From an uncultured Bacilli bacterium (GTDB lineage: Bacteria; Bacillota_I; Bacilli_A; RF39; UBA660): a DNA stretch of 47,007 nt. The stretch lies in NCBI GenBank assembly GCA_944363735.1, contig CALVVB010000004.1, positions 1 to 47,007 of the forward strand, given 5' to 3'. The position numbers were made by a program, and so were the translations under genes. A model generated the notes under the pieces. The model was not told where the DNA came from. It worked only from the letters and a program-made list of their open reading frames with translations, and ran no database searches. Below, in pieces: positions 13,495 through 24,023 of this stretch (positions are counted from its first letter, which is position 1; every line of letters starts with the position of its first letter).

Positions 13495-13520
13495 CAAAAA
13501 AAGTGGAGCCTTATGGCTCC
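13495..13520 (-). terminator. Intrinsic terminator; original terminator of the sRNA gene, displaced by integration
   Basis: minus strand ggagcc-ataa-ggctcc-acttttttg directly after the att core. Confidence 0.8.
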
Positions 13521-13529
13521 TTCAGGGGG
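13520..13529 (+). repeat. attL core (CTTCAGGGGG)
   Basis: Identical to 23876-23885. Confidence 0.85.
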
Positions 13530-13642
13530 AAATATTAATATCAGTTCGTAACAATTTAATAATTAGTTAAAGTCTTATATTATAAGGCTTTTTCATTTTC
13601 TTAAATTTACTAAAGTTTATAAAAATAACTTAATTTTCTGAA

Positions 13643-13665
13643 TTTAGTATCTAGATTTGGTATCT
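13643..13665 (+). repeat. Integrase arm-type sites, left (TTTAGTATCT, TTTGGTATCT)
   Basis: Same 10-mer occurs three times at 23771-23813. Confidence 0.75.
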
Positions 13666-13721
13666 GGAAATCTAATATAACAATTACTCAATACTTCAAT
13701 ATATAATAATCAGAAATAATC

Positions 13722-13967
13722 TTATTCTAAATCCAATTGTGATATTATTCGTTTCCTTTTTCTAGGATTTGCTAAAGCATTTAATTCTTTAACAGTTTGA
13801 TCTATTACTTTTTTTTCTTCCTCTGACAAAGTTCCATAATTTGTTATTTCCAATTGTTCTCCATCATATAATTTATCAGCAAACTCTATATAATCAAATT
13901 TTTCTTTTGTTTCGTCATTTATAAAATTCACCGAATTTCCATTCTTTTCAATTTTATATTTCATCAT
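13722..13967 (-). CDS. Small hypothetical protein coupled to the PHP-ATPase
   Basis: AGGAGG RBS; start overlaps the end of the upstream gene. Confidence 0.75.
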   Translation of the reverse strand: MMKYKIEKNGNSVNFINDETKEKFDYIEFADKLYDGEQLEITNYGTLSEEEKKVIDQTVKELNALANPRKRKRIISQLDLE

Positions 13968-16299
13968 TTTCCTCCTTATATGTTTTTATGTTGTATTTTT
14001 TAAATCTTTTCTTTATAGACTTCTTTCCACCATCAGTTATATCAGCAATAATATCCAAACATTTTTTATCAAATATTTTGTTTTCTATATAATTAGACCT
14101 AATAGTAATATTGTCGCCATTTGCTCTGCAATATATTATATTTTCTGCATCTGCTAAAACTGGAATGGTTGCATTATGGCTAACAATAATAATTTGCTTC
14201 TTAGTTTTTGACTTTTTTATATCATTTATTAGTTTATTATTTATATATTTATTGGCTAAATTATCTTCTGGTTGGTCAATTATTAATGGTGCCTCATCTT
14301 TACCGTATTGCAAAATCAACTCTGTTAAAACTGCTGTTTTCCATCCAGGACTTAACTCTTCCCATTTTCTTTTATCAGAAGTAATTATTTTATAATCATA
14401 TTTGTTGGACGAAGTAAATTTAGAAAAAATCTTTTGTTTAAAAACATCATAGTTATCAATTTTATATGATTTATTCAACTTATCCAAAAACAAATCGGAT
14501 GGTTTTATTTTTTCAAAATCAGTTATCTTATTATCGTTTTTTAAAAAATCATTGATATAATCTATGATATTGTTTTTTGTTATTTCCAACTTGTTTTCAA
14601 TAAATAATTGATGACCAGAAATAATTATAGGCTTTGATTGTACCTTATAAGAAAATTTGGCTAATTCATTTAAAGCTTTATCAAATTTTTTTCTTTCCTC
14701 TAAATATTTTGATATATATAATAGTGCTTTCTCATAATTACTATTTTTTGTTTTTATCTCATTATCATCATATTTGTAATTTTCGTCGAATTCTGTTTTA
14801 TGTTTTTTTATTATTTTCCTAATATATTTTTCAAAATAACTCTTTTTATATGCAGTATCTAGTTTTTGTTTAATAGATTCTATTTCTTCTTTTATATCTT
14901 CTATATAAATATTAGTTTTGCTAAATTTATATATTTCATCTAAATAATCTTGATGCTTTTCATATTCATCTTCATTATAATCTAACTTATCAATAATATT
15001 TTCCTTTGGAAATAGTTTTTCTAGTGGATTTTCTCGTTTACTCTTAAACAAAATTAAATTATCTAAATTAGTTAATGCCATTAAATTATTTTGGTAAACT
15101 TCTATTAGTTCAACGGCATTAAGGAGATTTGCTAATACATTATGAAGTTTATTTAATTTATCAGAAGTTTTTCGTTTAGATTGTTCAGTGGGTCCAAACA
15201 TCTGCTTTATTAAAGGAATATCCTCGATTTTATTTTTATTTGCAACATCTGATATAAAATTTTGATTTATATAATATGGAACAAAACCAACAGGATTATC
15301 AACCACCAATCCATCAAAGTCATATTTTACTGAATAATCAATCTTACCTAGTTTAGGATTTATTTCTTTTACAAGAGTATCAACTAATAAACTCTTACCA
15401 GATGATGATTCTCCAATAATAACATTTAATCCCTGTTTAAAATTAACATCGATATCTAGCAAATCATTTTTTATTTTGTATCCATGTATATATTCCTCAT
15501 ATAAATTTGGAATATTTTCGGAATATATTAAACGATTTGATTCTGATAAAGCTATTCTTAATCCTTCAAAAGTTGGTTCTGCAATAATCCATGTTGGTAT
15601 AAATTTTTCAGCCTTATCATCTTTTGGATTCGGATATTTTGTTGGATTATAATTATCAGAACAGGTAATTAAATTAGTGAACTCATCTATTCCTAGTTTT
15701 TTGAAATAATTCTTTGTTTTTTCCTTTCCAGAAGTGGTTCTGGCTGTAAAACCATCAAATTGATTATAGTATAAAACTTTTTCCATTACATTATCAAATT
15801 TTATTCCTTTAGGCATTGCTTTATCAAATGTACTATGATTTTGTCCACCATGTGGAAGAAGTATAAAATCATAATCGTTAAAAGTATTAATTATTTCTTC
15901 TAATTTTGGAATATCTTTATAATCTTCTTTATCAATTTCTTTTTTTGGATATAGCATATCAAGTTTTTCATTTATTTTGTCTATATTATCGCCATTTATT
16001 TCCACATTAAAGAATATATGGCAATGATATGGCTTTTTCTTTGTATCATAACTTACATGTAATTCAGCACCCAATATTAAGTAATACATATCTGGCAATT
16101 TATTCAAATAAATTTTCTTATTTATTATGTTATGATCAGTAAATGATATAAGCTTTTTCTTATCACAAGATATCTTATTAATATTTTTTATCAGTGCATC
16201 AATATCATATTCAACCCCATCTTTAATTTTATTTGGATTTTCAGATGTATGAATATGCAAGTCTGTATAAACGGGTTCAAATGACTCTTTTCTAATCAT
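13954..16299 (-). CDS. PHP-domain + ABC/SMC-type ATPase (Ppl/TrlF-like), putative anti-phage protein
   Basis: DLHIHT, TDHN, GAEL, HCH, CSDNY PHP motifs; GESSSGKS Walker A; LSPG signature; PLIIDQPEDNL Walker B/D-loop; SHN. Confidence 0.85.
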   Translation of the reverse strand: MIRKESFEPVYTDLHIHTSENPNKIKDGVEYDIDALIKNINKISCDKKKLISFTDHNIINKKIYLNKLPDMYYLILGAELHVSYDTKKKPYHCHIFFNVEINGDNIDKINEKLDMLYPKKEIDKEDYKDIPKLEEIINTFNDYDFILLPHGGQNHSTFDKAMPKGIKFDNVMEKVLYYNQFDGFTARTTSGKEKTKNYFKKLGIDEFTNLITCSDNYNPTKYPNPKDDKAEKFIPTWIIAEPTFEGLRIALSESNRLIYSENIPNLYEEYIHGYKIKNDLLDIDVNFKQGLNVIIGESSSGKSLLVDTLVKEINPKLGKIDYSVKYDFDGLVVDNPVGFVPYYINQNFISDVANKNKIEDIPLIKQMFGPTEQSKRKTSDKLNKLHNVLANLLNAVELIEVYQNNLMALTNLDNLILFKSKRENPLEKLFPKENIIDKLDYNEDEYEKHQDYLDEIYKFSKTNIYIEDIKEEIESIKQKLDTAYKKSYFEKYIRKIIKKHKTEFDENYKYDDNEIKTKNSNYEKALLYISKYLEERKKFDKALNELAKFSYKVQSKPIIISGHQLFIENKLEITKNNIIDYINDFLKNDNKITDFEKIKPSDLFLDKLNKSYKIDNYDVFKQKIFSKFTSSNKYDYKIITSDKRKWEELSPGWKTAVLTELILQYGKDEAPLIIDQPEDNLANKYINNKLINDIKKSKTKKQIIIVSHNATIPVLADAENIIYCRANGDNITIRSNYIENKIFDKKCLDIIADITDGGKKSIKKRFKKYNIKTYKEENDEI

Positions 16300-16320
16300 T
16301 TAATTCACTTCCTTACTACT

Positions 16321-22542: not shown

Positions 22543-22629
22543 TTATAAATATTTGTAGTTTGTATGATAAAATATAATTGTTACGAACTGGTATATTTAT
22601 AAATCCCAACAAAAAAGGAGGAATGAAAT

Positions 22630-23748
22630 ATGGGAATATATAAATTACCAAAAAATCAATGGACTAAAGATGGTCGTAAATATAAATATTATTGGAATGA
22701 AAAAGATAAAAATGGAAAATGGCATAAAAGGTTTTCTAAAGCTTATAAAACTAAATTAGATGCAATGAACGCTGAAAGAGAGTTTTTAAATAGTAAGGTT
22801 GAATTTGGTGGAGATATGGATATGACATTTGGTACTCTTACTGACCAATATATCGAATCTCAAAAAAATAAAGTTAGAAGAAGAACAATGGAAACATATT
22901 TAAAAAGAAGAAGATATTTTGCTGATTTTGAGAATGTTAAATTAAAAGATATGGATGGAAATCTATATCATAAGTTTCAACAAGATTTATGGAATAAACC
23001 TATTAAATGTTCTACTAGAAATGATGTTCAAAAGTTTTTAAAAATTATTCTTAATTGGGGAATGAAAATGTATGATATCAATCTAATGAAATTTTATAAA
23101 AAAATAGAGTTCTTTAAAGACCCTAATGAAATGAAAGAAGAAAAAGATGTTTACACTTTTGAAGAGTTTCAAAAATATATAACAGGAACTACTAATCTAA
23201 ATGATAAAACAATGTTTGAAATGTTATATTATTGTGGATTACGTCGTGGTGAAGCAAGAGGTTTACAATGGTCTGATATTGACTGGAATAATAAGTTAGT
23301 ATCTATTACTAAACAAGCTAATAGTGTAAAGGATAGTCAAAAATATTATGAACTAACTCCACCTAAAACATCTAAAAGTATTAGAACTTTACCTCTTACT
23401 GAAGTTTTATATAACGATTTAGTAAATTTATACAATGAAAAAAAGAAGTACTACGGCTTCAATGACAAATGGTTTATCTTCGGAGAACACGAACCATTAA
23501 CTTTCGGAATGATGTCTAGAATTAATGGTAGAATTGCTGAAAGTGCTGATATTAGAAGAATACCACTACACTCTTTTAGACATAGTTGTGCATCTCTACT
23601 AATTAATACTGGACAACCTGTAACAACTGTATCTAAGTATTTAGGACATGCTAGTACTAAAGAAACATTAGATACATATGCTCACATGTTTCCAAATAAT
23701 CTTACTAATGTAAAAAATACCATAGATAATTTAAATCTAGGTATTTAA
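22630..23748 (+). CDS. Tyrosine recombinase/integrase
   Basis: GLRRGE, PKT, HSFRHS, LGHA, TLDTYAH catalytic residues; N-terminal arm-binding region. Confidence 0.95.
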   Translation: MGIYKLPKNQWTKDGRKYKYYWNEKDKNGKWHKRFSKAYKTKLDAMNAEREFLNSKVEFGGDMDMTFGTLTDQYIESQKNKVRRRTMETYLKRRRYFADFENVKLKDMDGNLYHKFQQDLWNKPIKCSTRNDVQKFLKIILNWGMKMYDINLMKFYKKIEFFKDPNEMKEEKDVYTFEEFQKYITGTTNLNDKTMFEMLYYCGLRRGEARGLQWSDIDWNNKLVSITKQANSVKDSQKYYELTPPKTSKSIRTLPLTEVLYNDLVNLYNEKKKYYGFNDKWFIFGEHEPLTFGMMSRINGRIAESADIRRIPLHSFRHSCASLLINTGQPVTTVSKYLGHASTKETLDTYAHMFPNNLTNVKNTIDNLNLGI

Positions 23749-23770
23749 ATAAACTTAAATAAAAAATAAA

Positions 23771-23813
23771 TTTGGTATCTGAAAAAAGGTTTTTGGTATC
23801 TGGCTTGGTATCT
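23771..23813 (+). repeat. Integrase arm-type sites, right (3x [T/C]TTGGTATCT)
   Basis: 23771-23780, 23792-23801, 23804-23813. Confidence 0.8.
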
Positions 23814-23849
23814 AGAAAAAATTAAAAACCTCAGAAACCCTTATAAAAC

Positions 23850-23957
23850 AAAAAGTGTTCCCTCTTTCGAGGGAACTTCAGGGGGTTCGGTTGAATATAA
23901 ATCCACACTTAGATCGTGGATTATATCACCATGATAAGTAATATACTTATCATGTAC
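23850..23957 (-). ncRNA. Putative small RNA A (integration target)
   Basis: TTGACA(23990)-17-TATGAT(23967) promoter; two hairpins; unpaired CAACCGAACCCCCUGAA; GUUCCCUC-GAAA-GAGGGAAC-ACUUUUU terminator; no useful ORF. Confidence 0.7.
23876..23885 (+). repeat. attR core (CTTCAGGGGG)
   Basis: Identical to 13520-13529. Confidence 0.85.
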
Positions 23958-24023
23958 ATTAATCATATCTAAAAATTTTAAAGTTGTCAATTTGATTTTG
24001 AAAATTTTAGAAAAATTTTACAA

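Follow-up and report, generated by a model that had tools for sequence, protein, structure and literature searches.

When a mobile element integrates within the gene of a small RNA, what becomes of the 3' end of that RNA? This question is raised by a 47,007-nucleotide stretch of DNA (the window) from an uncultured Bacilli bacterium (GTDB lineage Bacteria; Bacillota_I; Bacilli_A; RF39; UBA660; assembly GCA_944363735.1, contig CALVVB010000004.1, positions 1 to 47,007, forward strand). A 10,346-bp mobile element (13530..23875) adjoins here the gene of a conserved RNA, referred to as small RNA 1. The reading put forward, to which a probability of about 0.85 is given, is that a mobilizable element with a tyrosine integrase has recombined via a 9-10-bp core inside the small-RNA gene and has swapped the terminator of that gene, at a site that serves as an integration hot spot throughout the bacterial family.

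The ends of the element are marked by the repeat CTTCAGGGGG, present on the plus strand at 13520..13529 (the core of the left attachment site, attL) and at 23876..23885 (that of the right one, attR), with 0.00 chance copies expected in the window according to 100 dinucleotide-preserving shuffles. A preliminary description, made from the letters alone, had bounded a tyrosine-integrase mobile element by this repeat at 13520 and 23876 and had held that the boundary is not the end of a tRNA. Both copies were located, the integrase gene adjoins attR, and no tRNA or tmRNA was found in the window; a third copy of the repeat, at 27053-27062, had gone unmentioned. The identity between attL and attR extends over exactly 10 bp, and the adjoining bases differ on both sides. 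The core common to all elements is 9 bp long, TTCAGGGGG, which corrects the figure of 10 bp: with the tenth base, a G on the RNA strand, every terminator stem begins, and some elements have an A there. Read on the RNA strand, the attR core is CCCCCUGAAG, the 3' end of an invariant single strand. Moreover, a repeat search revealed arm-type repeats next to the cores, namely TGGTATCTG near attL (13658..13666, plus strand) and three copies of TGGTATCTR between the integrase gene and attR (23773..23814, plus strand). Chance would give 0.89 matches to the latter motif in the window, and there are five, of which four lie at the element's ends and one outside it (10997). A short identical core at both junctions, accompanied by arm-type repeats, is the arrangement used by tyrosine recombinases.

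The gene that has been entered lies on the minus strand of the right flank. Its promoter, TTGACA-17-TATGAT (23990-23962), agrees with the consensus at 11 of 12 positions and precedes the chromosomal body of small RNA 1 (23877..23955, minus strand), which would start near 23955, judging from the position of the -10 box. The body consists of two hairpins of 11 bp and 13 bp (hairpin 1, 23954-23930; hairpin 2, 23927-23894) and of an unpaired, C-rich single strand of 17 nt (23893-23877), which includes the conserved segment ACCCCCUGAA and ends in CCCCCUGAA. Together with the terminator supplied by the element, the RNA folds with a z-score of -6.07. No Rfam 15 family reached its gathering threshold anywhere in the window, and scans by E-value found none for either small RNA 1 or the second conserved RNA discussed below; the best sub-threshold match on small RNA 1 was RAGATH-12, with 17.6 bits against the 75 required.

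With regard to its distribution, a pattern scan using one genome per species recovered at least 120 stretches of small RNA 1, in records named as uncultured Bacilli, as Tenericutes or Mycoplasmatota gut metagenome-assembled genomes, as 'Mycoplasma sp. CAG:877' and 'Clostridium sp. CAG:417', and as Candidatus Onthousia. The oriented loci number 138, of which 108 are distinct from promoter to terminator. An alignment of 109 distinct sequences shows an invariant -35 hexamer, a -10 box at fixed spacing and an invariant single strand, the invariance of the latter being partly forced by the search pattern. RNAalifold predicts two helices with 19 pairs, in which 97.3% of the pair cells are paired, compared with 87.4% in shuffled alignments (a value reached by 0 of 500 shuffles) and with 20-60% in controls in which the pairing partner was slid along. 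Compensatory changes affecting both sides are seen in 11 of the 19 pairs. A covariance model built without the terminator matches 10 of the 13 other genera of the same family and none of 137 genomes from other families of the class; in those other genera the helices are rewritten and ACCCCCUGAA is unchanged.

Small RNA 1 is thus predicted to have its own promoter, an intrinsic terminator and a conserved unpaired seed, the traits of a trans-acting small RNA, and it would act as a base-pairing regulator that makes use of the C-rich strand. Its transcription is presumed. The promoter and the two hairpins had been placed on this strand in the preliminary description, and all are found there; the Rfam search and the test for covariation that it proposed gave, respectively, no family and the covarying pairs described above. 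Its claim that the target is a conserved functional small RNA holds as far as a conserved, covarying RNA gene with an invariant promoter is concerned, the functional part of the claim being a probable one.

The 3' end of this RNA does not belong to the chromosomal body. On the minus strand, the core runs directly into a terminator borne by the element (23876-23847), which consists of the hairpin GTTCCCTC-GAAA-GAGGGAAC (23876-23857) and the T-run ACTTTTTGTT (23856-23847) and now ends small RNA 1. A different terminator, the displaced one, lies at attL on the same strand (13520-13495), with the hairpin GGAGCC-ATAA-GGCTCC (13520-13505) and the T-run ACTTTTTTTG (13504-13495); one such site was found against 0.0 expected. 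After integration, this hairpin lies downstream of the leftward genes of the element. Both had been noticed before, the one as a different stem with a T-run tail supplied by the element and the other as a GGAGCC hairpin with a T-run in the left flank, and their stems are indeed unrelated.

The same replacement is seen across the relatives. A hairpin follows directly after CCCCCUGAA in all 130 junctions with enough flank, with folding free energies from -10.5 to -18.2 kcal/mol, and these hairpins amount to 60 distinct strings. At least six U are found among the next 9 nt in 119 of the 130 junctions, and the remainder are mostly folds extended into a second hairpin. In terms of the plus strand, each relative has a different GC-rich hairpin with an A-run to the left of TTCAGGGGG, that is, a terminator on the RNA strand, and many of these left flanks show tandem arm-like repeats of their own. 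Even decayed islands devoid of an integrase still hold the junction hairpin. The core makes up the final 9-10 nt of a covarying RNA ahead of its terminator, as would be sought in a small-RNA gene that serves as chromosomal attachment site (attB). The original 3' sequence is not regained, since identity stops at the first base of the stem and the stems are unrelated: the terminator at the junction is always replaced and never restored. As a separate observation, TTATAAGGGTTT recurs a few nucleotides past the U-run of the terminator in many elements that otherwise differ (alignment columns ~170-215); it may be an arm or a regulatory site common to this guild of integrases.

Related genomes and sequencing runs reveal the same breakpoint. 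When 40 related genomes were searched with window positions 23860-24500, the best places in 15 same-genus genomes started at query position 17, which corresponds to 23876; in the remaining two genomes, G021 and G011, the match begins at position 1, and the terminator is of the type carried by the window element. The preliminary description had proposed looking among relatives for an empty site, and the junction that it predicted, with the GGAGCC hairpin, the core and the small-RNA body, is present at three loci (L002, L004 and L014). Furthermore, a contig from run X12 lacks the element, running from window position 13368 straight to 23876, and matches 23876-24224 letter for letter. To the left of attL, backbone synteny with three genomes (G016, G022 and G018) stops at ~11326, and the segment 11327..13519, with its TraX-like, XRE-membrane and NUDIX genes, is therefore itself island DNA. 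In these genomes, small RNA 1 is preceded by 4.3, 3.8 and 8.2 kb of unrelated sequence, respectively, and the TraX-like, XRE-membrane and NUDIX genes are absent there; the block looks like the remnant of an older island at the same hot spot.

The use of the site by many elements becomes apparent from the genes next to it. A left flank of at least 1.3 kb is available for 93 loci. An open reading frame (ORF) of at least 150 aa is found in 87 of them, of which 78 were scanned once nine duplicate loci had been left out. The nearest ORF on the left encodes an integrase in 18 of the 78, two of them fragments. Many of the others belong to the Abi_2, Fic, KAP NTPase, GmrSD, Mrr, D12 methylase, AAA_21 or Zeta_toxin families, and some are housekeeping genes such as MnmA or DsbD, next to which the site is therefore apparently empty. 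The full-length integrases (n=17) represent at least six lineages, 37-63% identical and each furnished with a terminator of its own, and even integrases that are 92-98% identical within a lineage adjoin differing terminators. The site is a family-wide hot spot: several diverged lineages of integrase share one core and differ in their terminators, and the elements pile up in tandem and degenerate into a variable island that abounds in defence-type genes.

The element of the window has moved between species. In G011 (locus L145), the same element is found with the same ends, other cargo and a length of 11.4 kb; its int-mob-rep module is 90.8% identical over 5 kb, compared with 76% identity between the chromosomes. 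A single element is thereby shown to have crossed species boundaries. In G011 it is followed in tandem by a second element that is more distant, a related 15.85-kb element lies between two cores in G006, and further attL-type cores are found 0.6-7 kb to the left of the junction in eight loci, twice with two in a row. Among metagenome contigs, 51 loci encode relatives of the window integrase. In the tallies read from the list of these loci, the core is followed by the small-RNA body in 29 cases (7 cores of the window's kind and 22 of the CAACCAAAACCCCCUGAA kind), by the loop of a second RNA, RNA2, in 6, by the left end of the window element's family in 5 (attP-like, attP being the attachment site of the excised element, or tandem) and by the left end of another element in 3, and 15 loci have no core in range. 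The integrases beside these 29 small-RNA bodies, which are of several types, are of the window's kind, most at 82-99% identity and a few down to 70%. In three of the attP-like or tandem junctions (L223, L225 and L226), the G-run of the core is longer by 2 to 5 G before the left end of the element, a variation that could reflect slippage or imprecise exchange.

As regards the mechanism, the core TTCAGGGGG marks where the invariant C-rich single strand (...AACCGAACCCCCUGAA) gives way to an intrinsic terminator, and the integrase would most likely exchange strands within it. With both attP and attB carrying a minus-strand terminator directly 3' of the core, recombination would therefore swap terminators. 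The promoter, both hairpins and the single strand would remain chromosomal, the original terminator would have been moved 10.3 kb to attL, downstream of the leftward cargo genes, and the unrelated hairpin and U-run of the element would end the small RNA at the same nucleotide. The leftward cargo (16299-13722) would accordingly be terminated at the displaced hairpin when the element is integrated and at the element's own hairpin in the circle. In a different account, the swap is a by-product and the hairpin of the element primarily ends its own leftward cargo operon in the attP circle. A crossover just 5' of a terminator in both partners would exchange the two and leave the small RNA terminated, with no selection for repair of the target. 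In their orientation, the hairpin and T-run suit the minus strand, the strand of the cargo genes, which in the circle would be read through the core into the element's hairpin; upon integration, the displaced chromosomal terminator at 13520-13495 takes over this role. Besides, the terminators differ between integrases of 92-98% identity, and the elements at L097, L195 and L197 carry a GGAGCC-type hairpin like the chromosomal ones, which suggests frequent exchange rather than fine-tuned mimicry. Against a mere by-product stands the strong hairpin at exactly the same position after CCCCCUGAA in all 130 junctions, as well as its retention in decayed islands without integrase, which fits selection for termination of the RNA. 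The universality of the hairpin, even in such islands, favours selection on the RNA, and keeping small RNA 1 terminated would presumably be of benefit. The by-product account is a possibility to be taken seriously, although not the preferred one, and it is compatible with such selection, the two not being mutually exclusive. The earlier proposal that the element evolved to keep the RNA intact is upheld with regard to the hairpin at every junction; the adaptation itself is at most plausible, since the hairpin would also end the leftward operon in the circle.

The reading of a terminator-swapping element at a family-wide site has to be set against several observations that weigh on the other side. 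The gene recG lies directly upstream of small RNA 1 on the same strand in 104 of the 111 loci with enough flank, at a median of ~160 nt between the core and the end of recG, and read-through from it may add to the activity of the small RNA's own promoter. One contig from an RNA library spans 23876-24173, for which carry-over of DNA is possible; the four sequencing runs are available as contigs and hence hold no information on start, end or strand, and the parts that they leave uncovered are uninformative. The attP joint (23875 back to 13530) was found in none of these four runs, in which contigs only were searched. Attachment-site junctions of the attP type do occur in five metagenome contigs (L195, L217, L223, L225 and L226) and could equally be tandem copies, which are at least as likely as circles; head/tail self-matches are absent from these contigs, and the joined attP string of the preliminary description was not searched in the collections. 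As the segment next to attL is a variable island, the attL hairpin may derive from an earlier element instead of being ancestral. Removal of the element would yield a junction type known from relatives, as had been predicted, with a terminator that is not necessarily the native one. Finally, sites complementary to the single strand are not more frequent in the genome than expected by chance (shuffled 19-mers average 35 nine-mer matches), and the leader motif of small hydrophobic ORFs considered below as a pairing partner is found in 0 of 100 other genomes of the family. The proximity of recG also invites the view that the conserved region is a 3' untranslated region or a processing element of recG, and that the elements target the end of the recG unit. 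This is improbable in the light of the invariant -35 TTGACA and the fixed spacing of the -10 box in the 109 sequences, of the 7 of 111 loci in which small RNA 1 is present without a RecG match in the 2.6 kb of right flank searched, and of an RNA body that diverges with compensatory changes between a fixed promoter and a fixed single strand. A small protein is a far more remote idea: inspection by eye finds an open frame of 41 codons on the minus strand, running from an ATG at 23965-23963 through the core into the element. This ATG is itself part of the -10 hexamer, with no ribosome-binding site in front of it; across 108 sequences, the longest ATG-initiated frame of the RNA strand ranges from less than 10 to just over 40 aa, and substitutions in the stems are compensatory; the coding reading is rejected because the hairpin loops of close relatives differ by indels of 1-2 nt and no frame is conserved. 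Hardly more credible is a coincidental 10-bp repeat around a fixed, immobile island. The lack of an excised form in the four runs would suit it, and it is already contradicted by the homology breaks at the core in 15 same-genus genomes, by the same element with the same ends in a species of 76% chromosomal identity, and by metagenome junctions and contigs without the element, in addition to the chance expectation of 0.00 for the repeat.

The genes of the element are in agreement with its classification. The tyrosine integrase (372 aa; 22630..23748, plus strand) matches PF00589 over residues 183-354 (E 2e-25) and phrog_1 (E 1.6e-56), and its translation shows by eye GLRRGE and HSFRHS, plus LDTYAH near the C-terminus, which we take to hold the catalytic Arg...His-x-x-Arg...Tyr residues. 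Also on the plus strand are a Mob_Pre relaxase (21163..22542; PF01076, E 2.9e-19), an AAA_25/DnaB-like helicase-type protein (19958..20908; AAA_25, E 9.3e-22) and, 5' of the latter, two small ORFs of 84 and 83 aa for which family scans were uninformative (within 19417..20908). The minus strand encodes an XRE-type helix-turn-helix repressor-like protein (18731..19288; HTH_3, E 1.5e-15), a P-loop protein (18217..18762; phrog_4182), a Zeta_toxin-family kinase (17318..18190) and a HAD hydrolase (16489..17268), the latter two assigned by family scan. They are followed by a 781-aa ATPase (13954..16299), of which only the C-terminal part matches, partially, the Ppl defence protein (PADLOC PDLC02208, E 3.7e-20), and by an overlapping ORF of 81 aa with no family in the scans (within the leftward cargo, 13722..16299). 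Families of coupling proteins or type IV secretion had no match among the 11 ORFs of the element; with an integrase and Mob_Pre present and conjugation genes lacking, it is therefore an integrative mobilizable element. In genome G018 (L002/L140), a Zeta_toxin-family gene lies 70 nt to the left of the small RNA, at a junction without an integrase, and is 76% identical at the DNA level to the cargo at 17319-18174, which suggests cargo left by a decayed element.

A second conserved RNA-like unit, RNA2, is found 3 kb away (26941..27075, plus strand). Besides a promoter (TTGACA-17-TATTAT), it comprises two hairpins, the invariant stretch ...CUAGCCAACCCCUUUUUAUUCUUUU and a terminator with a covarying stem. 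The 12-nt loop of this terminator, CCUUCAGGGGGU (27052-27063), shows complementarity to the single strand of small RNA 1. Of 60 other genera in the family, 56 have RNA2, at identities of 81-96% (a single match, a weak one, lies at 80%), and the RNA2 loop holds TCAGGGGG in 22 of 28 genera; the seed of small RNA 1 is invariant, also in four genomes with a deviating RNA2 loop. Just downstream of RNA2, from 27153 on the plus strand, lies a gene with collagen-like GPT/GAT triplet repeats, and different DNA follows RNA2 in other genera. The 1.25-Mb genome contains five sites of TTCAGGGGG, namely the two attachment sites, the RNA2 loop and the leaders of two tiny hydrophobic ORFs (on contigs C12 and C46). 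Within the genome, the 19-nt single strand is best complemented by the RNA2 loop, over 11 nt, and by these two leaders, over 10 nt each; with respect to pairing partners, all of them are to be regarded as leads only. The leaders belong to a set of four paralogous loci in the same genome (C12:16323-16504, minus; C46:779-979, plus; C15:16242-16419, minus; C63:73686-73867, minus). Three of them encode very hydrophobic, type I toxin-like peptides of 22-25 aa behind a conserved leader, no such frame having been found in C63, and a terminator-like inverted repeat lies 3' of all four. The 10-nt complement of small RNA 1, UUCAGGGGGU, is present in two of the four leaders, and the other two are without an exact site.

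A wider interpretation can be offered tentatively, and is rather doubtful as a whole. The unpaired C-rich seed of a family-specific regulatory RNA, its most conserved 9 nt, would be the universal docking site for at least six integrase lineages, with a reciprocal swap of terminators with a cargo operon, and would seed the main defence island of these reduced genomes; it would work in this way because any terminator can take the place of whatever lies 3' of the seed. The seed may in addition pair with the loop of the even more conserved RNA2, in which case the traffic of elements would sit on an RNA-RNA regulatory pair.

Comparable systems are known in part. Islands that target tRNA or tmRNA genes and other integrative mobilizable elements resemble the present one in the position of the integrase by attR, in a crossover in the 3' part of the RNA gene, in the supply of the displaced 3' part, in tandem accretion and in decay. 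Unlike tRNA 3' ends, which are restored almost base for base, only the function of a hairpin and U-run is kept here. Small RNA 1 is also reminiscent of RsaE/RoxS, the C-rich base-pairing small RNAs of Firmicutes, in its length of ~100 nt, in having a promoter and a terminator of its own, and in an unpaired stretch rich in C that would be able to pair with ribosome-binding regions rich in G; it has, by comparison, no Rfam match at gathering score. The use of small-RNA genes as attB is itself on record. As reported in the relevant passages of two papers, the attachment site of phiW104 is the last 23 bp of ryeB at the Salmonella ryeB (SdsR)/ryeA locus, and ryeE (CyaR) is a phage target in E. coli (PMC7380047, PMC3603311). 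These cases are precedents for the class of attB that the preliminary description had called rarely reported (PMC3603311, PMC7380047). The element of the window shares with the ryeB and ryeE systems, in so far as those passages describe them, an integrase that uses the 3' end of a small RNA as attB and a locus that is a hot spot for foreign DNA. In the ryeB case the phage would restore the same sequence, given that its site is the last 23 bp of the gene as stated in those passages, whereas here an identity of 9-10 bp ends before the terminator and the hairpins are unrelated. The hosts differ too, being an uncultured family of low-GC gut Bacilli, with an RNA that belongs to no Rfam family. The literature searched yielded only the ryeB and ryeE precedents and nothing on unrelated replacement terminators or on small RNA 1, the supplementary tables of small-RNA-linked sites in PMC3603311 lying outside its scope. 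What is new here is the short core that ends before the terminator, the unrelated replacement terminators, the many integrase lineages and a host RNA not previously described.

With these findings, the use of small-RNA genes as targets of integration, known from two cases in enterobacteria, extends to an uncultured family of gut Bacilli. They also point to a looser rule of target repair, in which what is replaced is the function of the 3' end, a terminator, rather than its sequence. Under such a rule, many integrases and hosts, diverged as they are, can share a very short core, and the site provides a natural set of integrase and attachment-site pairs with one common 9-bp core. For the family itself, the locus adds two conserved, undescribed RNA genes and marks a precise point from which mobile elements and defence islands can be located in the metagenome-assembled genomes of the lineage.

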